From a virus: 64,000 nucleotides of DNA. The notes below the pieces were generated by a model. The model had not been told where the DNA came from and made no database searches. It saw only the letters and a list, made by a program, of their open reading frames with translations. The stretch lies in UHGV virus genome UHGV-0275551; one strand, written 5' to 3'. The translations under genes and the position numbers were made by a program. Shown here in pieces: positions 23,494 to 45,043 of this stretch (positions within the stretch are counted from its first letter, which is position 1; the number at the start of each line of letters is the position of its first letter).

Positions 23494-23496
23494 ATT

Positions 23497-24000: not shown

Positions 24001-24006
24001 TTTATT

Positions 24007-24094: not shown

Positions 24095-24102
24095 ATTTAA
24101 TT

Positions 24103-24339: not shown

Positions 24340-24430
24340 ATTCTTAATGACCAGACCAAATCTCTTCTTTGTCCGATTTACCTTCAGATGAATAAGATTA
24401 AGTTTGCTGTAATTGGTCTTCTGTCAAAAC
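24340..24430 (-). repeat. spacer unit between the CAT tRNA and tRNA-Glu
   Basis: accagaccaaa start and tttgctgtaattggtcttctgtcaaaactgg end, degenerate copy of the spacer family. Confidence 0.4.
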
Positions 24431-24508
24431 TGGCGTTCCAGAAGGGATTTGAACCCTCAGATATCCACTTTGAAAGAGTGGTGACTTTACCGTTTTGTCT
24501 ACTGGAAC
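24431..24508 (-). tRNA. tRNA-Glu (anticodon TTC)
   Basis: sense anticodon arm CCACT-CTTTCAA-AGTGG perfect; acceptor gttccag/ctggaac perfect. Confidence 0.6.
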
Positions 24509-24515
24509 ATTAATT

Positions 24516-24592
24516 TGGTCTCTGTTGGAGGACTTGAACCTCCGGCCTTACCGCCCCAAACGGAACGCTCTACCAAGCTGAGCTAAACAGAG
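24516..24592 (-). tRNA. tRNA-Pro (anticodon TGG)
   Basis: sense anticodon loop TTTGGGG; perfect T-arm ggagg-acttgaa-cctcc; D-arm GCTC-AGCTTGGTA-GAGC. Confidence 0.55.
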
Positions 24593-24757: not shown

Positions 24758-26173
24758 TTACCAGATATAACGGTCAATCATTACTGCTTTGAGCATTACA
24801 CTGATTGGGTCAAACTTCTCACCACCAAGCAGAGCTTTTAAAGTGGCTGGAGAGAACCCTGATACCATTGCTACACCGTTATCCTTAACAGATACTTCGC
24901 AAGTACCATTACGGTTTGCTAAGTACCAGAATACCAGTTGTGGCATCTCATATCCAGCTTTTTTGTACTTACTCTGAATTGCTTCAAAGTTTGTACGACC
25001 GTTAGCCCCATCAACCTGATTAAACTCCATATCGGAGAAGATGATAAGCTTACTTGGCATATCTTTCTGAGTCAAGTTGTTTCTTTTGCCTGTCTCAAGA
25101 ATACGGTCAAAAGCTGCTTGTAAGTTAGTTGAGCCATATTCAACGTGTCGCATCACCTGACGATGACGGTTTCGTAAATCACCACTCAGTTCGATGAAGT
25201 GAGGGTTTGTTGAATAAACCATCAACTCATTCTTAAAGCAACCTGTATTGCGTTCTGCTACATACAAGGCAAGTGATACACCAATATCCAGAGCAGTAAT
25301 GGAGCCAAAATTCACCCAAGACATTGAACTTGATACATCAGACATACACAAGATGTTTTCACCTTCTGCCATCCAGTTTGGTAGTGCTTTCCACTGCTCA
25401 TTAGCAACATCTGCATTACCATGCTTGACAGATTTAATCACATCGTATGGGTAAACAGCACCAGCATTAATCTTAGCCTCACCTTTTGATAAGGACTCAA
25501 TGTAAGCTTTGTAACGTTCTCCATCCTTACGGTTAAACAGTTTTTGGTAACGTGCAGCAGCAAGTGAGGGAACCTTACTGTAGTCAATCTTGCCAAACTC
25601 ATTAGCAGAGATTTTTTGCTCAACTGTATCAGATAGTGCAGATAACAGTGTGCGGTACTCTTTCTCGCTCAAGTTGGCAAACTTGCAGAAACGTTTTACA
25701 AACTGCTTATGACGTGGTTTGACTCGTGGTAACCACTTAGCCGCCAAACCTGCTGTTGCAGGGTCTAGTAATGCTGCTTCTAAATGTTTGAAGGCATCTG
25801 TCTCGAAACAAGTACCCACGAAGATTTTGAAGTCATCAAAACGACCAAGTTCTGCAATCTTATCCATAATGCGAAGAACCTGTGTAGGCTCTAAAACTTT
25901 ATCTTCAATTGCTTGAAGCAAAACAGTTCTGAAGGCTTTACGCTCACCCATACCTTCTCGTACATCTCGCATATGAAGCAAAATACGAACTGCAACATCA
26001 ACATCCTCACGCAAAGCTTTGTAGAACAAGTCTGGTAAGATTTCTACATTGCTACGGCTTGAACCAGCAGCTTTGTAAAAGTCTACAAGAGCAGACATTG
26101 ATGAAGTATGGTTTACAGCACCATTTTCAGTTCGACCTGCATGAAGGTGCGCATGTTTAAATAATTCGCTCAT
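24758..26173 (-). CDS. vWA-domain protein with about 280-aa helical N-terminal domain
   Basis: 471 aa; MIDAS-like DxSxS (ILCMSDVSSSMSW) and KLIIFSDMEF strand typical of von Willebrand A domains. Confidence 0.55.
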   Translation of the reverse strand: MSELFKHAHLHAGRTENGAVNHTSSMSALVDFYKAAGSSRSNVEILPDLFYKALREDVDVAVRILLHMRDVREGMGERKAFRTVLLQAIEDKVLEPTQVLRIMDKIAELGRFDDFKIFVGTCFETDAFKHLEAALLDPATAGLAAKWLPRVKPRHKQFVKRFCKFANLSEKEYRTLLSALSDTVEQKISANEFGKIDYSKVPSLAAARYQKLFNRKDGERYKAYIESLSKGEAKINAGAVYPYDVIKSVKHGNADVANEQWKALPNWMAEGENILCMSDVSSSMSWVNFGSITALDIGVSLALYVAERNTGCFKNELMVYSTNPHFIELSGDLRNRHRQVMRHVEYGSTNLQAAFDRILETGKRNNLTQKDMPSKLIIFSDMEFNQVDGANGRTNFEAIQSKYKKAGYEMPQLVFWYLANRNGTCEVSVKDNGVAMVSGFSPATLKALLGGEKFDPISVMLKAVMIDRYIW

Positions 26174-33237: not shown

Positions 33238-33691
33238 AGAAACAGTTCGAAAAGCAATGCTTACCAATTCAACTAAAGATGAAATGTACAAAGAAATCTG
33301 TGATGAGTTGAATTGCTCAAGACATGCTGCTAAGGTTCTTGTACATTGTTTTATCTGGGAATGTTCAGAAGCTTATATGAGATTCAGAGCTTTTGAAAGT
33401 TCTAACTTACTAGGTGATGTAGAAGCTAGTGAGAAGCTAAAAGAACCTGAAGTGAAAACAGTCCCTAAAGTTGGTAATACATACCCTCTTAAAGACTTCA
33501 AGACTGGAAAGATTGTTGCAAAAGGTGTAGTAGAATCTGTTTATCATGATGGTAAATACTTACTTAAAATATTCGAGTATGACAGCCACTATACGCACTT
33601 ATGTGGGATTACATTCTTAGTAACAGAAGAAGACATTATTAGGAACAATAGCAACAAGTTTGCAGTACCAGCTTACCAAGTTTTACGATAG
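33227..33691 (+). CDS. hypothetical protein
   Basis: 154-aa track ORF; GGAGAG RBS. Confidence 0.4.
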   Translation: MKIKETVRKAMLTNSTKDEMYKEICDELNCSRHAAKVLVHCFIWECSEAYMRFRAFESSNLLGDVEASEKLKEPEVKTVPKVGNTYPLKDFKTGKIVAKGVVESVYHDGKYLLKIFEYDSHYTHLCGITFLVTEEDIIRNNSNKFAVPAYQVLR

Positions 33692-33704
33692 TGGTGTGAT
33701 AGAT

Positions 33705-34253
33705 ATGGAAAAAGATAACTTAAAAGACGTTGAAGGTAACTATCTAGTCCTTGACTGGAAGGATGTTCGGGAAGCACTCTCCGAAGAAAATCTTGACTGG
33801 TTCGAACAAATTATCTTTGCAGTACGGCATAACCGAGAAGTTGAAAATGGTAAAGAGCCACTTGAAGGAATCTTTGTAGAAAGGTCTTATCCGTTCTATG
33901 AAGACACTTTGCAGAAAGTTAAGATGTACTTTAAACAGAAGAACCGTAAAGTGGTCACTATGGTGTCTCTTGGTGGACAGAGTATGTCTGTGATGGAAGA
34001 TATCAACCCTAAGAGACCGAGTAAAGGTGTTTGTATAAAAATCACAGGACATGAAGAGTATATCTCAGTGGATGACTTTAGTGCATTCTGTAATGGGTCT
34101 TGTGTCTTTAATGGTTTTCACTATGATATCCGAGTATACCCAATCAAGGGAGATGATATCATGATGCAGATATTCGATAACAACAACGGATTCACTCATT
34201 TTTATCAGACAACTAAGTCATCCCTTAAAACAGTTCTGGAAACACTGATTTAA
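33705..34253 (+). CDS. hypothetical protein
   Basis: track ORF 33660..34253 re-started at first ATG (33705); the track start is a TTG inside the previous gene. Confidence 0.35.
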   Translation: MEKDNLKDVEGNYLVLDWKDVREALSEENLDWFEQIIFAVRHNREVENGKEPLEGIFVERSYPFYEDTLQKVKMYFKQKNRKVVTMVSLGGQSMSVMEDINPKRPSKGVCIKITGHEEYISVDDFSAFCNGSCVFNGFHYDIRVYPIKGDDIMMQIFDNNNGFTHFYQTTKSSLKTVLETLI

Positions 34254-34262
34254 AATATCTTA

Positions 34263-34293
34263 AGAGCCTCCTTAATCGGGGGCTTTTTAATTT
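34263..34293 (+). terminator. terminator candidate closing the plus-strand cluster
   Basis: gagcctcc-ttaatc-gggggct imperfect hairpin followed by TTTTTAATTTTT. Confidence 0.45.
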
Positions 34294-34940
34294 TTATAAA
34301 ATTTTATCGGTTGTCCCAACCTCTGGGTCACCATCATATGTGAATAAAATATCTATCCTTCTTAACAACCTCCTTAGTCTTACTCTCTATATAGTTATAT
34401 AGTACTATATAGTATCTTAGTAACTATCTAGTGGTCTTAATAGCCCCCCTGTATAAGCCTTCTAACTAGCCCTTTAATAAGCCCTCTAAACACTCTTCTA
34501 ACAAGCCTTCTTAACAACCTATACAATCACCTTAACCATCTCTCTATACCCTCTTAGAAGCTCCTATACACCTCTTAATCTCTATGTCAGCTATGATACC
34601 CTCTATAGATGTTCACTAGGTACTACTAAGCCTCTATATAGACTGTTTTAACAAACTTAACAGGAATATCTTCACAGACCTTATCTCACAAGGTCTAACA
34701 CGGTACTAACAAGGTATCTTATAAGCCTGTTTCTACCTGTATTTTTAAAAGACTGTATAGGTAATTATTCAGAATTTTAAAATTTTTATAAAATAAGACT
34801 ATCAAGTCATTTTTTAGGGTCTTTGAAGGAACTCAAAAATATCTGTAGAAGATGTATATCTGCTTGGTAGCCCTTAACAACTCCCTTACAAGTACTTTGC
34901 AAAATTTTAAAATATCCTTAACAATCTCTTAACAGTTCTC

Positions 34941-35013
34941 ACAAGCTCTTAACAACTCTTCAAAGCTCTTAACAACTCTTCAAAGCTCTTAACAACTCTT
35001 CAAAGCTCTTAAC
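34941..35013. repeat. tandem direct repeat, 20-bp unit x 3.6
   Basis: aagctcttaacaactcttca repeated head-to-tail three times plus a partial copy. Confidence 0.8.
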
Positions 35014-35895
35014 AGATTCTTAACAGAACTAACAAGGATGTAACAGTTTCTTAACAGTTGATACATAGGCTTTACAGAATCTTAACAGATGACTAACAAG
35101 AGCTAACAAGTTAATTTTTAAGAGTTATTTTGTAGGGATAATTAACAAGTTCCTAACAAGTGTTTAATCTTTTTAACAAGCTATTAACATGGTCACTATC
35201 TCTTTTCTTATCGTTCCCTTTCCCTCTTAGTGATTCTCTAAATAGCCCTCTTAAAAGCTCTCTATAGCTCCTTGTAAGCTCTTTTAAGTCTCTTCCTAGT
35301 AATTACACCCCAACTATACAGACACCTCTTTATAGGGCTTTACAGAGGCTTTAAAGGCTATGCTAAAGACTCTTACAAGGCTTTTACGTGGTCTTAACAG
35401 AGATTTAACAAGGGGCTAACAAGTCTCTAACAAGTGCCTTAAAAGCATAACTATGTAGGGATTGTTAAGAAATTGTTAAGAAAATGTTAAGGGGGCTAGC
35501 ATTTACGTAACTTTATAGCCTCTTTTACGTAACTTTTGAGTAACTTTATAGCCCCTATAACATACTTTAAAGGAACTACCAAGCCCTTTTTAGTAGTTCA
35601 CAAGAATACTAACGAGATGATAAAGCTTACACCCTTATAAGATTCTTCTAAGGCTCTGGGAAGCTCTATAAAGGGCTTTTTAGAGTGGGTTAATATGATT
35701 GCTTAAGTTAGGTTGATAAGGCTGTTATAGAGCGTTATAGAGCGTTTAAGGGGTTGCCCTTCCCTTTCGGGTTATGGGCTTATATTTAAGTTGATTTGAT
35801 AAAAGGTTATAGAGTAGACTATAGAGTTATTGCTTTTAAGGTCTGATAAGATTCTGGAAAGGGAAGGGAAAGGGTTGTATAAGGATTTGATAGAC

Positions 35896-35920
35896 GTAAA
35901 AAAGCCCCATTTAAGGGGCT
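35896..35920 (-). terminator. rho-independent terminator at the distal end of the small-gene array
   Basis: agcccc-atttaa-ggggct hairpin followed on the minus strand by TTTTTTAC. Confidence 0.55.
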
Positions 35921-35958
35921 GTAAAGGTATCTGGGGCTATTTAGCCCCGTTGCGTCGA

Positions 35959-36207
35959 TTAGTTGTAGCCTTGTTTGCTGTAGTATAGAGAGACAATCAA
36001 GTCACCCCAATAATGGTAGTGAGATTCCTCGTTTATGGCTTCTTTTACGGCATCTTTCCAGAAGTCATCAGTAGGGTTATAATCTGGTATCACCTGCTGA
36101 ATCAGCATTTTGATAAGGTCAAAGGTGTTATCTGTTCCACCGATATCGAATTTTGCATCAAGTTTGTGGCAGCCATAAGCATTAACAGTTACGCGGATAG
36201 TTGACAT
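35959..36207 (-). CDS. hypothetical small protein (cassette gene, family-A leader)
   Basis: 82-aa track ORF; ATG directly follows the conserved SD of leader 36208-36274. Confidence 0.5.
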   Translation of the reverse strand: MSTIRVTVNAYGCHKLDAKFDIGGTDNTFDLIKMLIQQVIPDYNPTDDFWKDAVKEAINEESHYHYWGDLIVSLYYSKQGYN

Positions 36208-36274
36208 AATTTAGATTCTCCAGTTTAGGACTTTGTTTAGTGGGAAGGTCATTCCCTCCCCGTTGATTAGTAAT
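36208..36274 (-). repeat. family-A leader element (5'UTR hairpin + SD)
   Basis: sense actaatcaacGGGGAGGGAATGACCTTCCCCactaa...cctaaactGGAGAatctaaATG; 8-bp stem incl. G:U. Confidence 0.6.
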
Positions 36275-36299
36275 TTACTGCATATTGGCGTAGGTTGCA
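36271..36299 (-). promoter_or_regulatory. sigma70-like promoter for 35959..36207
   Basis: -35 TTGCAA, 17-bp spacer, -10 TAAATT; the TAA of the -10 is the stop codon of the upstream gene. Confidence 0.45.
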
Positions 36300-36538
36300 A
36301 GCCTTTTTTCGTTGTATTTTGTCAGAATTTCACAAGATAGAACATCGTACATTGTAACCGCTTTGCTTTTGTCGAGGTCAAAAAAGCCAAATGCTTTACC
36401 ATCTTTGAATCCGACAACTTCGTAAGATTCTTTAATGATTTCACCATTGAACAAATCACTTTCGATACGGTGAAACAACGCTACGTCTTCTTTGTTAGTT
36501 GCAATCTGCAATAGTGTGGTTAATTCTACGTGTTCCAT
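36275..36538 (-). CDS. hypothetical small protein (cassette gene, family-A leader)
   Basis: track ORF 36275..36643 shortened to the ATG at 36538 that follows the conserved SD; the upstream extension reads through the leader. Confidence 0.5.
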   Translation of the reverse strand: MEHVELTTLLQIATNKEDVALFHRIESDLFNGEIIKESYEVVGFKDGKAFGFFDLDKSKAVTMYDVLSCEILTKYNEKRLATYANMQ

Positions 36539-36605
36539 TTTTGAATCTCCTAGTTTAAGGACTTTACTTAGTGGGAAGGTTAATCCCTCCCCGTTGATTG
36601 ACAAT
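36539..36605 (-). repeat. family-A leader element
   Basis: gaatctcctagtttaaggactttacttagtgggaaggttaatccctccccgttgatt on plus strand. Confidence 0.6.
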
Positions 36606-36631
36606 TTACAGACTTTTGATTGTCTCGTCAA
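36603..36631 (-). promoter_or_regulatory. sigma70-like promoter for 36275..36538
   Basis: -35 TTGACG, 17 bp, -10 TAAATT overlapping the stop of the 36606..37136 ORF. Confidence 0.45.
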
Positions 36632-37136
36632 TATCTTTTTCAATATCTTTTAAAGTTTTTTCTAAGTTCTTGATATTGAAGGATAAGCCTTCACCGAGAG
36701 TCTTAGAATAACCGCTAGGACGTAAATCATAAAGGCAAATTTGTTCTACATTGGAGAGGTTGACCATTTCACCGCTTACATCATAAGCTATTGATACGGT
36801 GTTTTCAGGGGCTTTATAGAACTTGTTAAGATTCTTGATAGAACGTTCATAAGCCATTTTATAACCATTTAAAAGGTCTTTAACGTGGTTGCGAACGTTT
36901 TTACACTCATCTAAGTAAATACCTAAGAATAGCGGTAACAGTTCTGCTACAGCTTGCATAAAGTGAGATACTACAACAGTAGAAACATTACGACGATGTA
37001 TATAATAAGCCCCGTTTTCTGATTTAGTGATAGTTGCAAAGTGTACACCGTTGCAACGAAATTCGAAGGTATCTTTAACGGGTTTAGTCATAACGTTAGA
37101 TGAGCGAATGTAGTTGATAGCTTGAAACTTGTTCAT
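36606..37136 (-). CDS. hypothetical protein (cassette gene, family-A leader)
   Basis: 176-aa track ORF; ATG follows conserved SD of leader 37137-37200. Confidence 0.55.
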   Translation of the reverse strand: MNKFQAINYIRSSNVMTKPVKDTFEFRCNGVHFATITKSENGAYYIHRRNVSTVVVSHFMQAVAELLPLFLGIYLDECKNVRNHVKDLLNGYKMAYERSIKNLNKFYKAPENTVSIAYDVSGEMVNLSNVEQICLYDLRPSGYSKTLGEGLSFNIKNLEKTLKDIEKDIDETIKSL

Positions 37137-37200
37137 TTTGAATCTCCTAGTTTAAGGACTTTACTTAGTGGGGAAGGTCATTCCCTCCCCGTTGATTAGT
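37137..37200 (-). repeat. family-A leader element
   Basis: gaatctcctagtttaaggactttacttagtggggaaggtcattccctccccgttgatt. Confidence 0.6.
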
Positions 37201-37229
37201 ACTATACTTGTTTTGATTTGCCTTTGCAA
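37201..37229 (-). promoter_or_regulatory. sigma70-like promoter for 36606..37136
   Basis: -35 TTGCAA, 17 bp, -10 TATAGT immediately upstream of the leader hairpin. Confidence 0.5.
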
Positions 37230-37356
37230 GCAATTTTTAAGTTTATCTATAAAGAATCTATTAAGTGAATCCCTTTTAGATAACCCCCTCGAACAAAGTT
37301 ACCAATGTCAATGGGTATTGTCAACACTTTTTTAAAAGTTTTTTGTAAGTTATTGA

Positions 37357-37698
37357 TTAACTTATGAATATTTTTTCAGGCTTTACATAGCTGATACGCT
37401 GACTTTTTAGCAGGTCATCCCAGATTAAAGCGGCAATATGTGCATAACCGGATTCACGTAAAAGCTTCATTGTTTTACTTCTCGTTTCAAAACGGCTTGC
37501 GTAGTATTCACTGTTCAAGGTCGTTTTATTCCCTTCGTTATCTGTATGGATGATTTGCATCACTTGAAAGGGGCTTACACCCTCGCCTTTGTTCCACTGT
37601 TCAAAGTATTTTAGGCACTGCATAGGTGACATCTTATCACTTACTTGAGTTGACCAAGATGAGCCAGCTTTATCGGTAATTACGGTTACATAAGCCAT
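37357..37698 (-). CDS. hypothetical protein (cassette gene, family-B leader)
   Basis: 113-aa track ORF; ATG follows conserved SD of leader 37699-37783. Confidence 0.5.
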   Translation of the reverse strand: MAYVTVITDKAGSSWSTQVSDKMSPMQCLKYFEQWNKGEGVSPFQVMQIIHTDNEGNKTTLNSEYYASRFETRSKTMKLLRESGYAHIAALIWDDLLKSQRISYVKPEKIFIS

Positions 37699-37783
37699 TT
37701 TAGAATCTCCAGTTTAGGATTTAGTGGTAAAGCTCTTTATCTGGGGCTTACTATACAGACTAATAAGCCCCATGTAAAGTACT
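37699..37783 (-). repeat. family-B leader element
   Basis: sense ...GGGGCTTA-(loop)-TAAGCCCCagataaagagctttaccactaaatcctaaactGGAGAttctaaATG. Confidence 0.6.
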
Positions 37784-38032
37784 TTAAGCGTCTTTATATT
37801 CTATCTCTGTGCACTCACCTTTTACTAGCTCAAAGGTCCAAATAATTCGTTTATACTCAATCACTACTACAGTAACAAGGTCAGTCCTCTTCTCATTGGT
37901 TTTAAAGTCTATTGTGTGGGTATACTCATAACTAGTCTTATCCTTAATTTCCCCGTAGCGTCTACACTCTTTATAGACTTCATCCATTAAGCCATTGCTA
38001 ACCATGTTTTTTAGTTGAGTTTTAGTATACAT
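37784..38032 (-). CDS. hypothetical small protein (cassette gene, family-A leader)
   Basis: 82-aa track ORF behind leader 38033-38105. Confidence 0.5.
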   Translation of the reverse strand: MYTKTQLKNMVSNGLMDEVYKECRRYGEIKDKTSYEYTHTIDFKTNEKRTDLVTVVVIEYKRIIWTFELVKGECTEIEYKDA

Positions 38033-38105
38033 TTTTTGGAATCTCCTAGTTTAAGGACTTTACTTAGTGGGGAAGGTCATTCCCTCCCCGTTGATTGATA
38101 ATTTA
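38033..38105 (-). repeat. family-A leader element with adjacent -10 TAAATT
   Basis: same GGGGAAGG..CCTCCCC hairpin and SD as other family-A copies. Confidence 0.6.
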
Positions 38106-38125
38106 CAGACTTTTATCAGGCTTGT

Positions 38126-38359
38126 CTAGTCTTTTTCAATGATAATTTCATATTGACCATCGACACTGTCGAAATAGATTCCTTCGTCATCTTCTGTCTT
38201 AAAGTAACATTGTATATCATCACTGGCGGGGTAGTCTTGTCTTGCTATCTGGCAAACTTGAATAGCATTTTCTTTACTTCCTGTAAACTCTTCAAGCCCT
38301 TTAAAGTCACATGAATGGCCGTTACAAATGGAAAGGATGAGATAAATGGTTGTAAGCAT
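38126..38359 (-). CDS. hypothetical small secreted protein
   Basis: 77-aa track ORF; hydrophobic N terminus MLTTIYLILSICNG; no family leader, preceded by hairpin cccc-tgtaa-gggg. Confidence 0.4.
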   Translation of the reverse strand: MLTTIYLILSICNGHSCDFKGLEEFTGSKENAIQVCQIARQDYPASDDIQCYFKTEDDEGIYFDSVDGQYEIIIEKD

Positions 38360-38425
38360 GATTTAAGCCCTCTAAAAGCCCCTGTAAGGGGTTAATCAGT
38401 GTTTATAAGGTGAATGTATAGGTTT

Positions 38426-38968
38426 TTAGAAAAAGACCTTTAAATCACTCTCTACAATGTTTTCTGTCAGTGTATCCATGATGTCACAAAAAACCTGAAT
38501 ACTGTCGGATTGTTGGATACTTTTAGCAAGTAGCTCCAATGTTTCATCAAGATAATTTAAATTTGGGTTATCCAGTGAAGGGAGACAAAAAGGTGAATAC
38601 ATAGCGTTGAACTCTGTTGTATAGACCTTTTTAATCCAATTTACATCAAAGTACTCTGTAAAGCTTGCTATATTTGACACGTTATCACAAGAATAATCAT
38701 CATTTAGCTCATCCTCTGGAATGTCAAGTTCTAAGATAACAATATTTTGAGTTTTCATCTGAAAAGCTGCCGTGATAGTGGCATTTCCTAGAGCTTGCTG
38801 GATACCTTCCGATGCTATCTCTTCCTCATCATCACCATAGAGTTTATTTTCTGGGTACACGTAAAAATTGCCGTCCATATCCGAACAATTCCATACACCT
38901 GATGGTTTATCACCGTTATTAATCAGGTTGATAAAGTTTTCTTGAGTAGTACCGTGAAAGCATTTCAT
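38426..38968 (-). CDS. hypothetical acidic protein (cassette gene, family-B leader)
   Basis: 180-aa track ORF behind leader 38969-39061. Confidence 0.5.
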   Translation of the reverse strand: MKCFHGTTQENFINLINNGDKPSGVWNCSDMDGNFYVYPENKLYGDDEEEIASEGIQQALGNATITAAFQMKTQNIVILELDIPEDELNDDYSCDNVSNIASFTEYFDVNWIKKVYTTEFNAMYSPFCLPSLDNPNLNYLDETLELLAKSIQQSDSIQVFCDIMDTLTENIVESDLKVFF

Positions 38969-39061
38969 TTTGAATCTCCTAGTTTAAGGATTTAGTGGTA
39001 AAGCTCTTTATCTGGGGCTTACTTTATCGAACTATAAGCCCCTTGTAAAGTACTTTATCAG
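38969..39061 (-). repeat. family-B leader element incl. promoter-like TTGTCA - 17 bp - TACTTT
   Basis: agtggtaaagctctttatctggggcttac...taagcccc..gtaaagtactttatcagttaattt on plus strand. Confidence 0.6.
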
Positions 39062-39259
39062 TTAATTTTTGACAACTTTTAAAACTGCAAGATAACCTAA
39101 GCAATAAGAATCACCGAAGAGAGTTCTACCCATGAAAGAATCATCTTTGATATCCTTTGCAGTGACTGTTTTTTCTACGCCGTGGGAAAGAACTACATCA
39201 CCAACTTTAATGTCTTTGATGTGCGTGGTTTCAATGGTTAAACCGTTGATAATAGCCAT
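39062..39259 (-). CDS. hypothetical small protein (family-A leader; ends ...VVKN)
   Basis: 65-aa track ORF; C-terminal codons and stop lie inside the conserved family-B element downstream. Confidence 0.5.
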   Translation of the reverse strand: MAIINGLTIETTHIKDIKVGDVVLSHGVEKTVTAKDIKDDSFMGRTLFGDSYCLGYLAVLKVVKN

Positions 39260-39323
39260 TTTGAATCTCCTAGTTTAAGGACTTTACTTAGTGGGGAAGG
39301 TCATTCCCTCCCCGTTGATGTGT
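39260..39323 (-). repeat. family-A leader element
   Basis: gaatctcctagtttaaggactttacttagtggggaaggtcattccctccccgttgatg. Confidence 0.6.
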
Positions 39324-39352
39324 AATTTAATCTATCTAAAAATCAGTGTCAA
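39324..39352 (-). promoter_or_regulatory. sigma70-like promoter for 39062..39259
   Basis: -35 TTGACA (perfect), 17-bp spacer, -10 TAAATT. Confidence 0.55.
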
Positions 39353-39360
39353 TAAAATTT

Positions 39361-39765
39361 TTAGAGTTCTGCATAAATTGCGTCGCAGATGTCACGAAAG
39401 TCATGATTTGCCAAATTACGTTGTAACCAAGTGGCAAAGAAATCAGCGATTGCAAAATTAGCATCATACTCAACAGATAGCCACACTTTCACGGCAAATC
39501 TAAACATTTTCAAGTCTAACTCTTTATTCATTACCTTAGATTTGCCTAACATGTCGACCATTTCATATTGTGCACCGTCTAGCGTGATACCTGCTGCAAC
39601 GTCAGCCAATGAGTTTTTTACGTTTTCAACGTCTAAGATAACGCTTTGAATCTTTCCGATAATGTTGTGCAATGTTTCATCCGGTGCTGATGATGTAATA
39701 ACATTGATTCGATTAACGGTTAAACGTGCTTTTAAGATTGACAACTCACGATTATTAATAGCCAT
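39361..39765 (-). CDS. hypothetical protein (cassette gene, family-B leader)
   Basis: 134-aa track ORF behind leader 39766-39850. Confidence 0.5.
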   Translation of the reverse strand: MAINNRELSILKARLTVNRINVITSSAPDETLHNIIGKIQSVILDVENVKNSLADVAAGITLDGAQYEMVDMLGKSKVMNKELDLKMFRFAVKVWLSVEYDANFAIADFFATWLQRNLANHDFRDICDAIYAEL

Positions 39766-39850
39766 TTTAGAATCTCCAATTTAGGATTGAGTGGTAAAGC
39801 TCTTTATCTGGGGCTTACTGTACAGACTTATAAGCCCCCTGTAAAGTACT
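39766..39850 (-). repeat. family-B leader element
   Basis: gaatctccaatttaggattgagtggtaaagctctttatctggggcttac...taagcccc. Confidence 0.6.
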
Positions 39851-40123
39851 TTATACTAAGTGCAATTTTTTACCTTTTACTATAATGTAACTCGATGTGC
39901 TATTGCTGCAAACATCCTGATAAATTCTGCGCAAACGTCCTTCATAGTATACTTTCCAGCTAGTTGGAATCTTTTTGCCGTATCCGGTAGCAGTTTTTTG
40001 GAGTCCTGCGAATTGCCAATCTAAGATATGTTGCTCAGCCTGTAAATCCTCAAAGTGCATCACACCGTCTACATAGTGACGTAGAGTGACATTTAAAGTG
40101 AGACCGTTGTTAGTAGTATACAT
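39851..40123 (-). CDS. hypothetical protein (cassette gene, degenerate family-A leader)
   Basis: 90-aa track ORF behind leader 40124-40187. Confidence 0.45.
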   Translation of the reverse strand: MYTTNNGLTLNVTLRHYVDGVMHFEDLQAEQHILDWQFAGLQKTATGYGKKIPTSWKVYYEGRLRRIYQDVCSNSTSSYIIVKGKKLHLV

Positions 40124-40187
40124 TTTAGAATCTCCTAGTTTAAGGACTTTATTTAGTAGGGTGGTTATTGCCTCCCCGTTGATGTGT
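40124..40187 (-). repeat. family-A leader element, diverged hairpin
   Basis: tagtagggtggttattgcctcccc in place of tagtggggaaggtcattccctcccc. Confidence 0.5.
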
Positions 40188-40216
40188 AATTTAATCTATC
40201 TAAAAACCAGTGTCAA
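40188..40216 (-). promoter_or_regulatory. sigma70-like promoter for 39851..40123
   Basis: -35 TTGACA, 17 bp, -10 TAAATT; flank nearly identical to the 39324-39352 copy. Confidence 0.5.
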
Positions 40217-40545
40217 CAGTTTTGTTTTCGTTTGCTCAACTCTTGAACAATTACAGTATGATAGTCTTTTAAGTCACTAATATTTAAAGCATTTATCAGA
40301 GAATTATAATCATCGACTAATTGAAAATCATCTTTGAAAATGTCGCTGATTTGATAAGCTCTCGCCCTGAATCTGAAGCTCATTTCTAACCGCTTTAATT
40401 GTTCATCGCTCAACCGCTCTAGAAAGCTCATTACAAGGCTATTGCTAACCTGTTGTGTGATTGCCTTATTTGCTAGATTATAGGCTTTATATGCCTTATA
40501 GAGCGCGAAAATGGCAATGATTGCAGTGATACCAGTCATTAACAT
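40213..40545 (-). CDS. hypothetical membrane-anchored protein
   Basis: 110-aa track ORF; N-terminal TM (ITAIIAIFALY); overlaps upstream gene by 7 nt, no own leader. Confidence 0.45.
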   Translation of the reverse strand: MLMTGITAIIAIFALYKAYKAYNLANKAITQQVSNSLVMSFLERLSDEQLKRLEMSFRFRARAYQISDIFKDDFQLVDDYNSLINALNISDLKDYHTVIVQELSKRKQNC

Positions 40546-40835
40546 GGTGCTTCCTCTTTACGTGACACTTTGCCATTTACAGTTATCTCATAAGAATCTA
40601 GTAAATCGCTTTTAGATTTGACAGGACTTTTAAGAGTATCATCATAGATATTGACTTGCAATACAGGTTTTTTATACTCCCTGCAACTATTCCATAAGCA
40701 AATCACTACACGACGACCTTTTATTTTGCCGTGTAACCATTCCATAACATCATGGCTATTTCTTGATGTTTCAATGAAATCAATTTTGTTGAGTAATTTG
40801 CTTAGATTTTCACGAACTTTATTTGATAATTTCAT
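40539..40835 (-). CDS. hypothetical protein (cassette gene, family-B leader)
   Basis: 98-aa track ORF behind leader 40836-40923. Confidence 0.5.
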   Translation of the reverse strand: MKLSNKVRENLSKLLNKIDFIETSRNSHDVMEWLHGKIKGRRVVICLWNSCREYKKPVLQVNIYDDTLKSPVKSKSDLLDSYEITVNGKVSRKEEAPC

Positions 40836-40923
40836 TTTTGAATCTCCAGTTTAGGATTGAGTGGTAAAGCTCTTTATCTGGGGCTTAAGATACCAACTTT
40901 TAAGCCCCTTGTAAAGTACTTTA
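40836..40923 (-). repeat. family-B leader element
   Basis: conserved hairpin GGGGCTTA..TAAGCCCC and SD. Confidence 0.6.
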
Positions 40924-41133
40924 TCAGTTAATTTTCAGCTTTGCATAACCTCTCATTGTACGAATTGGAGATGTTAAGGCTACGCGTCTAATATATGCCT
41001 TTTTTGTGTATACATTTGTCTTTCCGATAGTGTTTACACATGTAAAAAGATTTATTGGTGAATTTTTTAACTTCAACTGTTTATCAGCCTTCACACCCCA
41101 TCTTACAGCAGATTGTTTTCCGTTGTCAACCAC
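40924..41133 (-). CDS. hypothetical protein (GTG start) or 3' part of a frameshifted cassette gene
   Basis: 69-aa track ORF with GTG start and poor RBS; the family-B leader ATG at 41213 opens a 23-codon ORF in another frame that stops at 41142. Confidence 0.3.
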   Translation of the reverse strand: MVDNGKQSAVRWGVKADKQLKLKNSPINLFTCVNTIGKTNVYTKKAYIRRVALTSPIRTMRGYAKLKIN

Positions 41134-41213
41134 TTTCCCGCCTAACTTTTCGCTATGATGCGAGCGTCATCACGAGTTTTTACAGGAATTACAACGTTTT
41201 TGATAGTAGCCAT

Positions 41214-41301
41214 TTTTGAATCTCCAATTTAGGATTTAGTGGTAAAGCTCTTTATCTGGGGCTTACTTTATCGAACTATAAGCCCCTTGTAAAGTACTTT
41301 A
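41214..41301 (-). repeat. family-B leader element
   Basis: gaatctccaatttaggatttagtggtaaagctctttatctggggcttac...taagcccc. Confidence 0.6.
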
Positions 41302-41682
41302 TCAGTTAATTTTGAAGATTGTTACATAACCATCACTACCGATGATTTGAGACACTCCAGCTTTTTCTACTTGATAGCCCATATTTTCAAGATGATAAAC
41401 AGCATCATCGTAACCATATGCGCCACCCTGATAACGTCTCTTATCGCATCTTATCAGGTTTTTACCACGTCCAGCAAGTGCATGTAAAATGGCTTTTTCG
41501 CTTGAAAGAGTACCATCTAGCATTGTCGCCGTGTAATGGTTGATTTTATTCCCATTGATATCATACTTAAAATTAAACGAGTGAACAACAATAACGTTAC
41601 CTTTAAAATTCTCATCAAGTGACTTCTCCAGTGCGTTGCGAAAGTTGTCTTTGTTGATGAATTTAGGTGCACGGTATGCCAT
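41302..41682 (-). CDS. hypothetical protein (cassette gene, family-A leader; ends ...FKIN)
   Basis: 126-aa track ORF behind leader 41683-41750. Confidence 0.5.
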   Translation of the reverse strand: MAYRAPKFINKDNFRNALEKSLDENFKGNVIVVHSFNFKYDINGNKINHYTATMLDGTLSSEKAILHALAGRGKNLIRCDKRRYQGGAYGYDDAVYHLENMGYQVEKAGVSQIIGSDGYVTIFKIN

Positions 41683-41750
41683 TTTGAATCTCCAGTTTAG
41701 GACTTTATTTAGTGGGGAAGGTCATTACCTCCCCGTTGATGCAAATACTA
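41683..41750 (-). repeat. family-A leader element
   Basis: gaatctccagtttaggactttatttagtggggaaggtcattacctccccgttgatg. Confidence 0.6.
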
Positions 41751-41947
41751 GATAACCCCGTTCAAAGAGTCAAGAAAAATTTTAAAAATATTTTTGGAAA
41801 AACTGTAATGAAACGTGCGCACACGACTACCACAAAACAGAACACAAATCAAGAATTATTTTTCAACCCGCTACAAATTTTTCTCTTGACTTTTGGGGAG
41901 AGGTGGAGTAAGAGGGGGAGAGGGGTTGGTCTGGCTCTCTATAAAAA

Positions 41948-42140
41948 CCTACCTGCACGATTCTAAAATGATTTTTCTTGCCCGACCTGAGCGGGGTCTG
42001 CACGTTTTGAAAATGAAAAAGCTCTTTGGAGATTACCTGCACAGTTTGAAAATGAATTTTCTCTTTGGAGTTCAAAATTCTCTCTACAGATTTCTCTACA
42101 GAACTCTACCTGCACAATCCTGAAATGAAAAAGCCCTCCT
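41948..42140. repeat. four dispersed direct repeats of about 35 bp in the intergenic region
   Basis: copies of cctgcacNNttNtNaaaatgaNNtt at about 41948, 41995, 42032 and 42104. Confidence 0.55.
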
Positions 42141-42201
42141 TACCTGAAAAATTTACCAGATAAGGAAGGCTTAGTCTATTGTAAATATTATACAGAGTTT
42201 C

Positions 42202-42987
42202 TTAGTTCTTTGCGTCTAAGAAGGTAACTTCTGGTGAAGAGAAGACCGTCTCGATATCCTCATCAGTTCTTGCATAAATATATGTATCTGCATCACTGCC
42301 AAATGTTACGGCTATCCTGTGATTGCTCTTCGACAGGTGGGTAACTAGAGCGTTACTTAGAGACATCTTCTCAACCGGAGGGTTACTTTGATGTATCTTA
42401 CCTTTTCTTCGTCTGAAGAGGGTAACTGTATCATCTTTGAACGTTACTACACCTGCAAAGTATTCTGGTTCACAGTAGTTATTCCAACCTGAGCGTAACT
42501 TGTGGTACATCTCTCCTTCGTAGACATACAGATAAACATCTACACTCTTCATCACCTGATTAATGATAACTGTGACGGCTTGAGGGTCAAGTCCACCGAT
42601 ACCTGCACCAATCATAGGTAAACCAACCTTCTTCAACTGATTAACTTCACAGTATCTGTTAAGCTGTTTCAAAGATGACTCTAAAGCACTGTATCGGGCA
42701 TCTTTACCAGTCTTAAGCTGAGTGTAAAGGTTAGCTATACGACCTTGTTTTAAACGTGCTACAGAGAAATTACCCAGTAAATTTTCACAAGGTTTGTGTC
42801 CTATACCACCTGCATATAGATAAACTTCTGTATCGGTCTCATATGCTTTTGGGTAAAGTTTAGAAATCTTGTCAGCGATACCTGCACCCATTAAGTTCAT
42901 ACAGTTGCAACCGTGACCGATGATGTCAAACTTACCTTTATCAAATGCGGCAAAGATATCACCATTAATTATTTTTACAATACCCAT
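42202..42987 (-). CDS. macro-domain protein with about 100-aa C-terminal extension
   Basis: 261 aa; N-terminal IINGDIF...DIIGHGCNCMNLMGAGIADKI resembles the macro-domain ADP-ribose-binding signature. Confidence 0.55.
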   Translation of the reverse strand: MGIVKIINGDIFAAFDKGKFDIIGHGCNCMNLMGAGIADKISKLYPKAYETDTEVYLYAGGIGHKPCENLLGNFSVARLKQGRIANLYTQLKTGKDARYSALESSLKQLNRYCEVNQLKKVGLPMIGAGIGGLDPQAVTVIINQVMKSVDVYLYVYEGEMYHKLRSGWNNYCEPEYFAGVVTFKDDTVTLFRRRKGKIHQSNPPVEKMSLSNALVTHLSKSNHRIAVTFGSDADTYIYARTDEDIETVFSSPEVTFLDAKN

Positions 42988-43188
42988 TTAACATCTCTCC
43001 CAAGATTCTTTGTCTTCTGAAGGTTTTACACGTTGTCCTTCGTGGTCTACCCAGATGCACCCACAACCTTCACAGATTACTGGCATTGCATAACCAGCTT
43101 TAAAGTCATCTTCAGTGATAAGACCTTTTAAGTCACCTGTATCACGTCCGAACATTTCAATAGAACAGTCTTTGCAGAAGTCAGCCAT
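42988..43188 (-). CDS. hypothetical Cys-rich small protein
   Basis: 66-aa track ORF; CKDC...CEGCGC cysteine pairs. Confidence 0.4.
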   Translation of the reverse strand: MADFCKDCSIEMFGRDTGDLKGLITEDDFKAGYAMPVICEGCGCIWVDHEGQRVKPSEDKESWERC

Positions 43189-43200
43189 ATAACATACACC

Positions 43201-43428
43201 TTATAGTTCAGTTTCTCGTAATTCTTTACCTTCATCATAGAAGCATTTATAGAATGTATCTATAGAAATTCTGGCAAAGGTAAGGTCTTCAAAGTATTCT
43301 TCTGGAGTTATACCTGTAAAACTAAAACCATCAAGATTGTAAAACGGTATTACTGTGTCATCGCTCATGAAAACACATGCAGATACGACTTCTCCAGTAT
43401 CTTTGTCAATTATTTCTAGAGCTTTCAT
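43201..43428 (-). CDS. hypothetical protein
   Basis: 75-aa track ORF. Confidence 0.4.
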   Translation of the reverse strand: MKALEIIDKDTGEVVSACVFMSDDTVIPFYNLDGFSFTGITPEEYFEDLTFARISIDTFYKCFYDEGKELRETEL

Positions 43429-43540
43429 AGTTTACCTTCTCAGTTAGCTCATATAAATCAACATGCTCAATACTATCAATGTTGATATCAATCTTTTTGA
43501 AGCGTTCTATCACTTCGTTGTCAGTCATCCATATCAGACA

Positions 43541-43729
43541 CTAATGATTCTGAATGGATTCTTCAAGAAGGTCAACACAATCTTTAAAAGTTTTTGTATC
43601 ACTTCTTGTTCCTATCATTGCGATTGTTCCATATAGCCACTTACCATTGCCATAAGATACTTGTGCTACGCCAACTTCTTTGCCTTTCTCGTAGTAAACA
43701 GCTACAAAGTCTCTTCCGTTAATCTGCAT
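43541..43729 (-). CDS. hypothetical protein
   Basis: 62-aa track ORF. Confidence 0.35.
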   Translation of the reverse strand: MQINGRDFVAVYYEKGKEVGVAQVSYGNGKWLYGTIAMIGTRSDTKTFKDCVDLLEESIQNH

Positions 43730-43731
43730 AG

Positions 43732-44004
43732 TTACTTCCTCGTTTTGAGAACTGCTAAGATTTCTTTAGAGTCTGGTAAGAACCATGTGTAGTGATTCTC
43801 TTTGATTTCTGGATGAGTGTCAACCTTTATTTTGCACTCTTTACCAACATGCTTAAGCTGTGCTGTGATACCTTGCATAAAGATGTGACACATTACATTA
43901 TCCATAATCGTAGGTAAGAAATCAATCCTCATGTAAGTATCTTTCGGTCTCGGTAGAAGTAAGTAACCTTCTGTGTAGAAAGTTTCATCATTACTTTGTG
44001 TCAT
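43732..44004 (-). CDS. hypothetical protein
   Basis: 90-aa track ORF, coupled to o-spanin gene. Confidence 0.4.
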   Translation of the reverse strand: MTQSNDETFYTEGYLLLPRPKDTYMRIDFLPTIMDNVMCHIFMQGITAQLKHVGKECKIKVDTHPEIKENHYTWFLPDSKEILAVLKTRK

Positions 44005-44270
44005 TACTGCTTATTCCCTAATAAAATCATATCAATAAGGTTATTAGCTTTGATTGTGCACTGGTAAAATCCATCACGATAGAACTCAAGGGCTGCTGCC
44101 ACATCGCTGCCAGTATTACCTTTGACAGTGAATCTTGACTCTTCTTGAGTGTACTTGTCACCCTCACTTACTTGGGAGTTTTTGAATGTACTGTTCACTT
44201 TGTTCGTTGAACACCCTGACATAATTATCAGTAACACAAACATTATAAAACTCTGGCTTAGTTTTTTCAT
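44004..44270 (-). CDS. o-spanin (outer-membrane lipoprotein), putative
   Basis: 88 aa; signal peptide with lipobox-like IMSGC; overlaps the 3' part of the i-spanin-like gene in another frame. Confidence 0.55.
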   Translation of the reverse strand: MKKLSQSFIMFVLLIIMSGCSTNKVNSTFKNSQVSEGDKYTQEESRFTVKGNTGSDVAAALEFYRDGFYQCTIKANNLIDMILLGNKQ

Positions 44271-44511
44271 ATGTTAGTACCTCTTTTGTATGCTTATTCT
44301 TAGCAAGCACATCTTTCAAATCATTTTTGTAATTGGTGCTGAGTGTGGCTAAACCTTCCTGATAAGCATCTTTGGCAACACTTATTAGTTTCTCGTTATT
44401 TAGCTCAGTTTCAGCAACTTGGTAGTCTCTGTAAGAGTATCCTCCCCAGACACCTGTCCCAACTAAGAAAACAATTATGAAAGTAGCTTGACAGAACTCT
44501 TTAAATGTCAT
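44164..44511 (-). CDS. i-spanin, putative
   Basis: 115 aa; N-terminal TM helix (FIIVFLVGTGVWGG) then coiled-coil-like domain; overlapped arrangement with lipoprotein gene. Confidence 0.55.
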   Translation of the reverse strand: MTFKEFCQATFIIVFLVGTGVWGGYSYRDYQVAETELNNEKLISVAKDAYQEGLATLSTNYKNDLKDVLAKNKHTKEVLTYEKTKPEFYNVCVTDNYVRVFNEQSEQYIQKLPSK

Positions 44512-44529
44512 TTAACAATCTCCTGAAAT

Positions 44530-44553
44530 GAAAAAGGCTCCCGAAGGAGCCTG
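44530..44553 (-). terminator. rho-independent terminator
   Basis: aggctcc-cgaa-ggagcct hairpin followed on minus strand by TTTTTCATTTC. Confidence 0.5.
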
Positions 44554-44563
44554 TATCTTAACC

Positions 44564-45043
44564 TTAACCGAGGACTTTAGCAAGGATATTTGCAGCCATC
44601 GAAGAAGCTTTTGCAGCAGCAACTACGCCAGCTTTGACAGTGCTATCCTTAATAGCAGATACCGTTGCAGCATCAGTAAAGAGATAAGTGATTGTTTTGG
44701 AACCACTTGTAAAGGAAAGCATAAGAGTAGTTTCCAGATTGAAAGAGCGATACGGAGCACCTTCTTTAACGATACCTTCAGCACCTAACTCTGAAGCCTT
44801 ACCCATATCATAGATAGTCATCAGGTTTTCTTTGTGTGCAGTCGTTGAACCAACACCTTTTACGTGCTTCTTAACGTTCAACAATGCACGATATTCACGA
44901 ATGCTACCATCAGCTTTTACATTAACAGCACGGAAAATTTTACCTTCAAAGTTACCTTGAATCATTTTACGAACTACTTCAGATTTGTTTGCCGTATCGT
45001 CCAGTGCTACCGTAATGATATTGTTCATAAGTTCTTCTCTCAA
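44564..45043 (-). CDS. hypothetical protein
   Basis: 159-aa track ORF. Confidence 0.4.
   Translation of the reverse strand: MREELMNNIITVALDDTANKSEVVRKMIQGNFEGKIFRAVNVKADGSIREYRALLNVKKHVKGVGSTTAHKENLMTIYDMGKASELGAEGIVKEGAPYRSFNLETTLMLSFTSGSKTITYLFTDAATVSAIKDSTVKAGVVAAAKASSMAANILAKVLG

Follow-up and report, generated by a model that had tools for sequence, protein, structure and literature searches.

A tract of 1705 bp at positions 34254-35958 of the 64-kb stretch of DNA analysed here (hereafter the window) contains no ORF of at least 60 aa on either strand and is the longest such tract in the window, the runners-up being tRNA clusters of 936 and 777 bp. A preliminary description had already singled it out as ORF-free, saturated with short motifs and conceivably a replication origin, a packaging site, a protein-binding array or a source of ncRNA. 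The question raised by this locus is which of these functions so long a non-coding tract serves in its source phage, which is a Felixounavirus (Felix O1-like myophage).

Layout of the non-coding tract

The tract is bounded on both sides by terminators that point inward, as had been proposed. On the left, the terminator directly follows the stop codon of the last plus-strand gene (33660-34253), and on the right, a terminator block at 35903-35948 adjoins the 3' side of the first minus-strand gene (35959-36207). Relatives carry a terminator at the place equivalent to the left one, where it is annotated in Moogle and KhF2, and the records of these two phages annotate terminators at the right boundary too. 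Between the boundaries, a single copy of a repeat sequence is enclosed by two flanks:

34262-34287, plus strand: intrinsic terminator closing the lysis-side cluster, a GC-rich hairpin followed by a T-run
34301-34865: predicted right-end unique non-coding flank (565 bp), just inside the right-hand repeat copy in the virion (window orientation)
34866-35496: direct terminal repeat (DTR) sequence, 631 bp, located by mapping the exact terminal repeats of relatives; present once in the window
35497-35895: predicted left-end unique non-coding flank (about 400 bp), just inside the left-hand repeat copy in the virion
35920-35903, minus strand: predicted terminator closing the early-gene array
35933-35948, minus strand: second hairpin of the same closing block

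The terminal repeats of relatives map within the tract

The GenBank records of Ro111lw, E9, NBEco004 and Citrobacter HP1 carry a repeat without mismatches at both ends, of 613, 580, 628 and 570 bp, respectively. The repeats of Ro111lw and E9 map onto 34866-35496, and those of NBEco004 and HP1 cover the full query (1-631) starting at record position 1. The left boundary in the window falls between 34865 and 34866 (...ATATCTGCTT followed by GGTAGCCCTTAACA) and the right boundary between 35496 and 35497 (...TGTTAAGGGGGC followed by TAGCATTTACG). The strings that span unique and repeated DNA are identical to those of the window in three of the four records (Ro111lw, E9 and NBEco004), while in HP1 one to three bases of the unique flank differ, with one difference at the left junction. 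Both flanks are collinear with what adjoins the repeat at either end of the Ro111lw and E9 records; by coordinates, the records of H12, SeKF_63 and CRP22 open at the same position and that of REP10 about 20 bp off. This homology to relatives with determined ends shows where the repeat lies and where exactly its edges fall, and it is from these relatives that we infer the ends of the phage itself.

Published work on the genus agrees with this location, with terminal repeats of 580-613 bp obtained by PhageTerm or by Bal31 digestion and run-off sequencing. PhageTerm gave a 613-bp DTR for Ro111lw (PMC6454146) and a DTR for E9 and H12 (PMC11737134), the terminal repeat of Pr103Blw is 581 bp long (PMC8303462), and Bal31 treatment with run-off sequencing gave a 608-bp repeat without cos ends for UAB_Phi87 (PMC4837284). 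These Felix O1-like repeats occupy the same locus, have a similar size and share the same neighbours, the lysis-side cluster and, opposite it, the array of early small genes. When our predicted edges are placed on the UAB_Phi87 record, the terminal SpeI fragments are 4431 and 2751 bp long, matching the reported Bal31-sensitive bands of 4322 and 2819 bp only within 70-110 bp; the record used has 87,603 bp and differs from the published sequence of 87,669 bp. Version 1 of the UAB_Phi87 GenBank record opens in the tRNA cluster and lacks a duplicated repeat. We rejected a 127-bp terminal 'repeat_region' annotated in PC79-13 as a marker of the repeat edge (query position 634), as that record is marked circular and the annotated repeat looks like an assembler overlap, with a break near or in the tandem-repeat zone. 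TerL (17046-18662, minus strand) carries the Pfam domains Terminase_6N and Terminase_6C, which do not distinguish between packaging types; Bardina et al. found that Felix O1-like TerL forms a DTR cluster of its own (PMC4837284).

Taken at the level of sequence, the tract is thus very probably a collapsed concatemer junction, made up of the right-end flank, one DTR copy and the left-end flank, and of the functions offered beforehand the packaging site or genome end is the one borne out. As replicating or assembled DNA has a single copy of the repeat, the window runs through it without a break. The greater length of the repeat, 631 bp as compared with 570-628 bp in the four records with sequence-verified ends, is largely due to two extra units of a 20-bp tandem array inside it, by which the window exceeds all 12 aligned relatives (40 bp). 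This array is the tandem repeat that had been noticed before, and it is listed here with the two edges of the repeat and with an AT-rich tract, the region's only origin-like feature:

34735-34815: AT-rich tract, 81 bp, 18.5% GC, lying about 50 bp ahead of the repeat; AAATTTTTATAAAATAG within it is invariant in the alignment
34851-34879: predicted left cut-site block, GATGTATATCTGCTT / GGTAGCCCTTAACA; the repeat starts at 34866, with the junction string as in relatives
34926-35014, plus strand: 20-bp tandem repeat CTCTTAACAACTCTTCAAAG, 4.4 copies (TRF score 148, 94% matches)
35461-35496, minus strand: right edge, three inverted TGTTAAG units at 11-bp spacing, ending ...GGGGGC / TAGC (TRF period 11, 95% matches)

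Conservation of the tract among relatives

The region is matched by 257 phage records with identities of up to 92%, nearly all from Felixounavirus or related genera; coverage is 80% or more in 203 of them. In an alignment of the window with 12 relatives from three genera (13 sequences), conservation of the non-coding tract across Felixounavirus, Suspvirus and Mooglevirus equalled or exceeded that of the genes beside it, which is the outcome of a comparison that the preliminary description had put forward. Per position, a mean of 87% of the 12 relatives match the window in the 34301-34865 flank as against 74% in the adjacent gene, and 84% do so in the 35497-35895 flank, where individual blocks are nearly unchanged in all 13 sequences. 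BLASTN similarity to Moogle and phiSUSP1 spans the latter flank and ends at 35954, short of the neighbouring gene. The edges of the repeat are particularly constant. The left cut-site block is almost unchanged across all 13 sequences, the TGTTA units of the right edge are intact in 11-12 of the 12 relatives, and the right edge is the top-conserved 50-bp bin of the region (0.96). The two edges together form an inverted repeat (I1; 37 nt, 78%). A scan of IMG/VR with the right-edge pattern returned 17 contigs of 84-94 kb, all Felix-like and none from another lineage. PhageMaP knockout data for the Felixounavirus Bas63 are without intergenic insertions.

A helically phased TAACA array within the repeat

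Relative to the rest of the window (62 kb), the enrichment of short motifs in 34254-35958 is 12- to 115-fold, far beyond chance and in keeping with the described motif saturation. TTAACA occurs 19 times forward and 3 times in reverse (1.9 expected, both strands), CTAACAAG 8 and 0 times (0.16 expected), TATAGAG 4 and 6 times (0.25 expected) and AGCCCT 5 and 2 times (0.41 expected); TCTTAACA is found 11 times forward (about 0.1 expected), and the palindrome CTATATAG has three copies here and none elsewhere in the window. The motifs had been described as present in both orientations, which holds for TATAGAG and the AGCCC-type motifs but not for CTAACAAG, found in a single orientation, or for TTAACA, with its 19:3 bias. 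The description as AT-rich likewise holds in part: overall the difference is modest (35.0% GC vs 38.7% for the whole window), and it is the 81-bp tract that stands out.

The repeat itself holds 22 forward TAACA sites and three inverted copies at its right edge. Throughout the repeat, the forward sites recur in phase with a period of about 10.2-10.4 bp, with R values of 0.72 (window) and 0.81 (HP1), a degree of phasing that none of 2000 random placements reached for either sequence. Within the repeat, TAACA positions are 96% conserved as compared with 83% for spacer positions (Mann-Whitney p = 2e-9). Helical phasing and conservation above the spacers lend indirect support to the protein-binding array proposed earlier, and judging from these sequence properties the TAACA sites probably bind a protein. 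That this protein is the terminase is a more tentative identification, about which we are nearly evenly divided. Searches of the genes neighbouring the junction and of the ORF upstream of TerL with Pfam and PHROG recognised no small terminase or DNA-binding protein; all of these genes fall into PHROG families of unknown function.

The flanks carry arrays of their own. In 34301-34865 these comprise the three CTATATAG palindromes (34387, 34405 and 34634), CTCTATA motifs, a AAGCCTTCTAAC array with a 12/24-bp period (34453-34520) and two TAACA pairs (34649/34658 and 34696/34707). In 35497-35895, TRF located a TTTACGTAACT/TTATAGCC array with an 11-bp period (35502-35562) and 2.3 copies of GTTATAGAGC (35724-35746), and a TATAGAG pair lies at 35808-35826. 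CTCTATA on the left of the repeat and TATAGAG on its right are mirror-symmetric about it and would probably be bound by a second factor.

Comparison with other terminal repeats

The Erwinia phage vB_EamM-M7 (Kolesnikvirus), of the same subfamily, has a 444-bp terminal repeat in the homologous place, in which 13 TAACA sites point forward and 7 are inverted, the latter mostly in the right half. As in the window, forward TAACA or TCTTAACA units at spacings of 9-11, 20 and 22 bp are followed rightward by inverted units, and in both phages the left cut comes after the block GTATATCT. However, only about 130 bp can be aligned, at 72% identity, the flank motif of M7 is CTTAGAAG as opposed to TATAGAG, and, measured from the conserved blocks, both of its recorded edges are displaced outward by about 2 nt. 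Taken alone, the phasing in M7 is only borderline (P about 0.05).

A more distant likeness is seen in the T7 junction, which is also non-coding and contains an exact short repeat, with a 5-7-bp motif present more than 10 times in and beside it. We checked the T7 sequence, in which the repeat measures 160 bp and CCTAAAG occurs 13 times over about 450 bp; these short-repeat arrays were reportedly named SRL and SRR by Dunn and Studier in 1983. Insertions near the edge of the T7 repeat (positions 142 and 162) lower fitness. The two junctions share no sequence similarity, and the T7 motif has a single orientation and lies mostly outside the repeat, whereas most of the TAACA array is contained in a repeat four times as long, with helical phasing and an inversion at the right edge. 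Moreover, T7 has early promoters just inside its left end, while in the present phage transcription of the gene sets on either side runs toward the ends. In lambda cosB and SPP1 pac, the spacing of several short recognition sites lets an oligomer of the small terminase bend the DNA beside the cut or wrap it, but these systems make cohesive ends or headful cuts rather than a duplicated exact repeat.

Other readings of the tract

The most serious alternative, although an improbable one, is that the region is, or also contains, a replication origin, with the motifs serving as initiator iterons and the AT-rich tract (34735-34815) as the unwinding element. Such an origin would be compatible with a concatemer junction rather than exclusive of it, and the strong conservation of non-coding DNA and the dense phased direct repeats, the 20-bp tandem unit among them, are what it would call for. 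However, the array is coextensive with the terminal repeat, the cut sites fall at its edge copies, and the conserved unit is TAACA or TCTTAACA, of 5-8 bp, rather than an iteron of 17-22 bp. The 20-bp unit varies freely in copy number among relatives, and its spacer positions are less conserved. The region has no cluster of DnaA boxes, with one match at one mismatch being the background level, and a scan with the IHF consensus likewise returned background; the neighbouring genes have no initiator domain recognisable with Pfam or PHROG, and the GC skew at the region only reflects gene orientation.

It is very unlikely that the region encodes one or more ncRNAs. Fold energies of the repeat and both flanks are somewhat below those of shuffled sequence (z of -2.0 to -3.4), which can be attributed to inverted motif copies such as the two repeat edges pairing with each other. 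Even at a permissive threshold, the sole Rfam 15 match is Phe_leader, which lies over a terminator and scores 24.8 bits against a gathering cutoff of 55 (E = 0.29). A sigma-70 scan found 11 promoter-like sites where 6.8 +/- 2.7 were expected; the matches within the region are weak and explained by the resemblance of TTAACA to TTGACA. With bounding terminators that face inward and frequent indels between relatives, this part of the preliminary description found no support.

Small protein-coding genes, as annotated in some GenBank records (E9, FG1m and UAB_Phi87), are scarcely credible. ORFs of 31-52 aa do exist, and several records call 'hypothetical proteins' in the region, but each of the four ORFs of at least 30 aa has TTG or GTG as its start codon, just 7, 5, 1 and 1 of the 13 aligned genomes preserve them intact, and relatives carry frameshifting indels and stop codons in them. 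None of these ORFs is conserved in the alignment, and the refuting observation named in the preliminary description, conserved small ORFs, was not made. Equally implausible is a headful pac site or a cos site, which would also be non-coding, repeat-rich and of the general kind recognised by terminases, given that the terminal repeats of relatives are exact and fixed with identical boundaries, that PhageTerm classes Ro111lw, E9 and H12 as DTR and not as permuted, and that UAB_Phi87 lost two defined fragments to Bal31 and kept its restriction pattern on heating, a negative test for cohesive ends (PMC4837284).

Discussion

We consider it likely, on the combined evidence, that the tract is a DTR concatemer junction with a TAACA recognition array that guides packaging. 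As a plausible mechanism, virion DNA would carry the repeat at both ends, at fixed positions. The roughly 25 TAACA sites, with their phase of about 10.2-10.4 bp, would all lie on one face of the helix, and since the first and the last of them are inverted relative to each other, each edge reads TAGCCC..TTAACA inward. A phage protein, most likely the recognition component of the terminase, would bind these sites and assemble on the repeat or wrap it, directing one nick per edge on opposite strands. Strand-displacement synthesis would then duplicate the repeat, leaving a full copy at both chromosome ends as in a T7-type scheme, and after injection the repeats would allow concatemer formation.

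A bolder proposal, which we regard as rather doubtful, is that the whole terminal repeat of the Ounavirinae acts as a single large nucleoprotein signal, in which the protein measures the length of the repeat and sets both nicks. About 20-25 TAACA sites on one helix face would extend over 450-630 bp, a candidate phage protein would wrap or coat the repeat, and the inverted copies would define both cuts. If true, such repeats would form a packaging-signal class of their own that is easy to recognise, and a further role of the array in end protection or in the initiation of replication is conceivable.

The terminal-repeat junction itself is a feature already known for this phage group. Our literature searches found reports of the repeat length only, with no account of the surrounding 1.7 kb of non-coding DNA, the phasing of the TAACA sites or the inversion at the edges, and the fine structure of the array appears to be new to the literature. 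We know of no studies of the short-repeat packaging mechanism in this group. The general picture of short-terminal-repeat phages is unchanged by these findings.

Among deposited Felix O1-like records, many begin at an arbitrary position or annotate spurious 'hypothetical proteins' in the repeat. Knowledge of the true ends fixes the orientation and annotation of such genomes, and for those who engineer these therapeutically used phages it marks out 1.7 kb to leave undisturbed. For the biology of the group, the conserved, helically phased TAACA array offers a concrete and testable candidate for the packaging recognition signal.

Organization of the ORF-free tract

The preliminary description delimited the region exactly: 34254-35958 is the window's longest interval lacking an ORF of at least 60 aa on either strand, and tRNA clusters are the next longest. 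The flanking terminators and the 20-bp tandem repeat described there were likewise recovered:

34262-34287 (+), terminator closing the last plus-strand gene
34926-35014, 20-bp tandem repeat
35920-35903 (-), terminator closing the first minus-strand gene
35933-35948, second hairpin beyond the minus-strand terminator

The small minus-strand genes on the right (35959-46000) form an array that is transcribed toward the region and carries repeated host-type promoters (TTGACA-N17-TAAATT, e.g., at 40216, 39352 and 36631). The reported saturation with short motifs also holds, with 12- to 115-fold enrichment over the remaining 62 kb of the window, from which the expected counts were taken: TTAACA (19+3 observed, 1.9 expected), TCTTAACA (11, 0.1), CTAACAAG (8+0, 0.16) and TATAGAG (4+6, 0.25). 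The palindrome CTATATAG has three copies in the region and none in the rest of the window. The motifs had been described as lying in both orientations, which is true of TATAGAG but not of CTAACAAG, found in one orientation only, while TTAACA is strongly biased. Similarly, the AT-richness is modest overall (35.0% GC) and pronounced only in one 81-bp tract (18.5% GC).

The wider window fits a Felix O1-like myophage in its GC content (38.7%), in the tRNA genes and large terminase listed below, and in encoding an E-type capsid protein, a Mu-type portal and an S49 protease. The 1705-bp region is matched by 257 phage records, nearly all from Felixounavirus or the sister genera Suspvirus and Mooglevirus; the top matches (ECML-1, C600M2, allfine) reach ~92% identity, and Felix O1 matches at its 12306-13927. 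One record, PV390658.1 (Escherichia phage vB_EcoM_P54), has the taxonomy line Straboviridae/Tequatrovirus, yet its 88-kb genome and the 91-92% identity of its junction to that of this Felixounavirus window make it appear misclassified. Elsewhere in the window we note:

17046-18662, large terminase (TerL)
18669-18869 (-), 66-aa ORF directly upstream of TerL (phrog_4397, family of unknown function)
19092-24592, 26 tRNA genes
24758-26173 (-), 471-aa protein with DUF7788 and DUF2828 domains, directly upstream of the tRNA array

Going by position alone, the 471-aa protein may be the counterpart of the Ro60-like gp130 of Bas63, which the PhageMaP preprint reports to counteract ppl defence.

The region contains the terminal-repeat sequence of relatives

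Several relatives' GenBank records start or stop inside the region, at recurring positions. For five of them both ends were fetched and compared, and in all five the two end copies are identical, with no mismatch.

Exact repeats at both ends of relatives' records
Ro111lw, Felixounavirus: 613 bp
E9, Felixounavirus per its paper: 580 bp
NBEco004, Felixounavirus: 628 bp
Citrobacter phage HP1, Mooglevirus: 570 bp
Erwinia phage M7, Kolesnikvirus: 444 bp

In the first four, unique sequence passes into repeat at ATATCTGCTT/GGTAGCCCTTAACA and repeat into unique sequence at TGTTAAGGGGGC/TAGCATTTACG, except that the unique flank of HP1 shows one to three base differences and the right edge of NBEco004 reads TGTTAAAGGGGC. 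The window carries the exact strings at 34865/34866 (ATATCTGCTT/GGTAGCCCTTAACA) and 35496/35497 (TGTTAAGGGGGC/TAGCATTTACG), and the Ro111lw and E9 repeats match 34866-35496 by BLAST and no other window site. The window's copy of this direct terminal repeat (DTR) measures 631 bp because of two extra 20-bp units, absent from all 12 aligned relatives.

Published data agree with this placement. PhageTerm gave a 613-bp DTR for Ro111lw (PMC6454146) and direct terminal repeats for E9 and H12 (PMC11737134); Pr103Blw has a 581-bp terminal repeat (PMC8303462), and UAB_Phi87, which is without cohesive ends, a 608-bp repeat by Bal31 digestion and run-off sequencing (PMC4837284). In the original Felix O1 paper, 'short terminal repeats' were deduced from genome size alone, and the sequence was made to start at rIIA. 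Placed on the UAB_Phi87 record, the predicted edges would give SpeI end fragments of 4431 and 2751 bp versus reported Bal31-sensitive bands of 4322 and 2819 bp, an agreement within only ~100 bp, with a record version that differs from the published one; the ends mapped by experiment thus fall in the junction locus. Given the shared exact boundaries, the published DTRs and the SpeI check, the region is very probably a collapsed concatemer junction, consisting of the right-end flank, one DTR copy and the left-end flank, and the packaging-site option of the preliminary description is thus borne out through the relatives. Transcription of both neighbouring gene sets is directed toward the genome ends.

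The 127-bp 'repeat_region' annotated at either end of the Salmonella phage PC79-13 record (OR687644.2) was rejected as a physical terminal repeat, as it looks like assembler overlap; the record, marked circular, is broken close to the 20-bp tandem repeat.

A helically phased TAACA array within the repeat

The DTR holds 22 forward TAACA sites followed by three inverted ones (TGTTA at 35463, 35474 and 35485) abutting its right edge, against a background of ~3 sites per kb on both strands. Neighbouring sites are spaced by 9-11, 20, 31, 39-44 or 210 bp, and over the whole DTR the forward sites keep a phase of 10.2 bp (R = 0.72; HP1, 10.4 bp, R = 0.81), values of R reached by none of 2000 random placements, so that the sites would sit on one helix face even over the 210-bp gap. 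Within the DTR, TAACA positions are 96% conserved versus 83% for other positions (p = 2e-9), which shows, at the level of the alignment, that the motifs are under selection. Each DTR edge is an inverted copy of the other: inward from the left edge the sequence is GGTAGCCCTTAACA, inward from the right edge GCCCCCTTAACA, and together the edges form a 37-nt inverted repeat with 78% complementarity.

The flanks carry a second motif family, with four CTCTATA on the left (34301-34865) and four TATAGAG on the right (35497-35895), roughly mirror-symmetric about the DTR and almost invariant in the alignment; CTCTATA also occurs once inside the DTR and once in the right flank. An inverted pair ~75 bp apart, CCCTTCCCTTTC (35766-35780) and GGAAAGGGAAGGG (35857-35871), encloses the right-flank TATAGAG pair and is only partly conserved among relatives; a similar pyrimidine run lies inside the DTR at 35213-35225.

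An origin of replication, which the AT-rich tract and the repeats might suggest, is rather unlikely: DnaA boxes and IHF sites are no more frequent than background, a classical iteron would be longer than the conserved unit, and the array coincides with the DTR and its cut sites.

Conservation, coding and RNA potential

Conservation in related phages, a check proposed in the preliminary description, was assessed on 13 sequences (the window and 12 relatives), and the tract is kept across three genera. On average, the window is matched by a fraction of 0.87 of the relatives in the left flank, 0.81 in the DTR (lowered by the window-specific insertion) and 0.84 in the right flank, versus 0.74 in the left neighbouring gene; BLASTN similarity to Moogle and phiSUSP1 spans the whole tract and ends at 35954, just short of the right-hand gene. 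Judged from this conservation, the region is functional DNA and not filler, a real conserved cis-acting element.

A non-coding RNA, also proposed earlier, is very improbable, since an Rfam search of the region gave no credible match, promoter-like sites are weak and arise from the TTAACA motif itself, and inverted motif copies explain the fold z-scores (-2.0 to -3.4). Small genes are hardly credible: the four ORFs of at least 30 aa all have TTG or GTG starts and are intact in just 7, 5, 1 and 1 of the 13 genomes, and indels are frequent and not multiples of three. Because these ORFs are not conserved between relatives, the 'hypothetical proteins' of 25-55 aa annotated in the DTR and flanks of E9 (241-1157 of its sequence), UAB_Phi87 (Phi87_32 to _34, 6526-7313), FG1m and FM4b are probably spurious. 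A pac or cos site, as implausible as small genes, conflicts with the relatives' exact end repeats at shared boundaries and with the ends of UAB_Phi87.

A ~23-bp near-palindromic insert, (G)GATTCGATAGAATCTATCTCAT, absent from the window, occurs at differing junction positions between relatives (Moogle 696-717 and 1287-1308; HP1 1164-1185; CECAV_041 2201-2222; also the relatives' sequences L026, L033, L037, L039, L040 and L041), in the terminator loop, just ahead of the left cut site or in the right flank. It resembles a very small element that is mobile or forms a hairpin.

Proposed mechanism and comparison with T7

In the accepted T7 scheme, the terminal repeat is duplicated by strand-displacement synthesis. 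For the concatemer junction described here, the phased TAACA array probably binds a phage protein, for which the terminase, most likely its recognition part, is a tentative candidate. The bound protein would place one nick at each DTR edge, on opposite strands; T7-like strand-displacement synthesis would then duplicate the DTR, and the duplicated repeats would later permit concatemer formation. No recognisable small terminase subunit was found adjoining TerL, and the 66-aa ORF and the junction-bordering genes all belong to families of unknown function. Among the insertions of the Bas63 knockout screen, none falls in intergenic DNA; insertions beside the repeat edge of T7 (positions 142 and 162) are harmful.

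The T7 junction, whose 160-bp repeat we read here, is the closest studied analogue. It has 13 CCTAAAG in one orientation, mostly outside its repeat, whereas in this phage the repeat is four times as long and encloses the array, which is strictly phased with the helix and inverted at one edge; the small-gene array, read toward the genome end, is also arranged oppositely to T7. At this locus only ~130 bp of Erwinia phage M7 can be aligned, yet it follows the same plan, with 13 forward sites at similar spacings and seven inverted ones, mostly in the right half of its repeat, and a different right-flank motif, CTTAGAAG, where the window has TATAGAG. The terminal repeats reported for Felix O1-like phages are the same element as the window locus; the literature searched gives repeat lengths only, with no description of the TAACA array found for this group. 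The junction thus belongs to a familiar type of element, one whose presence in this genus had already been established, and the fine structure of its DTR, though no surprise, is a useful lead for packaging studies.
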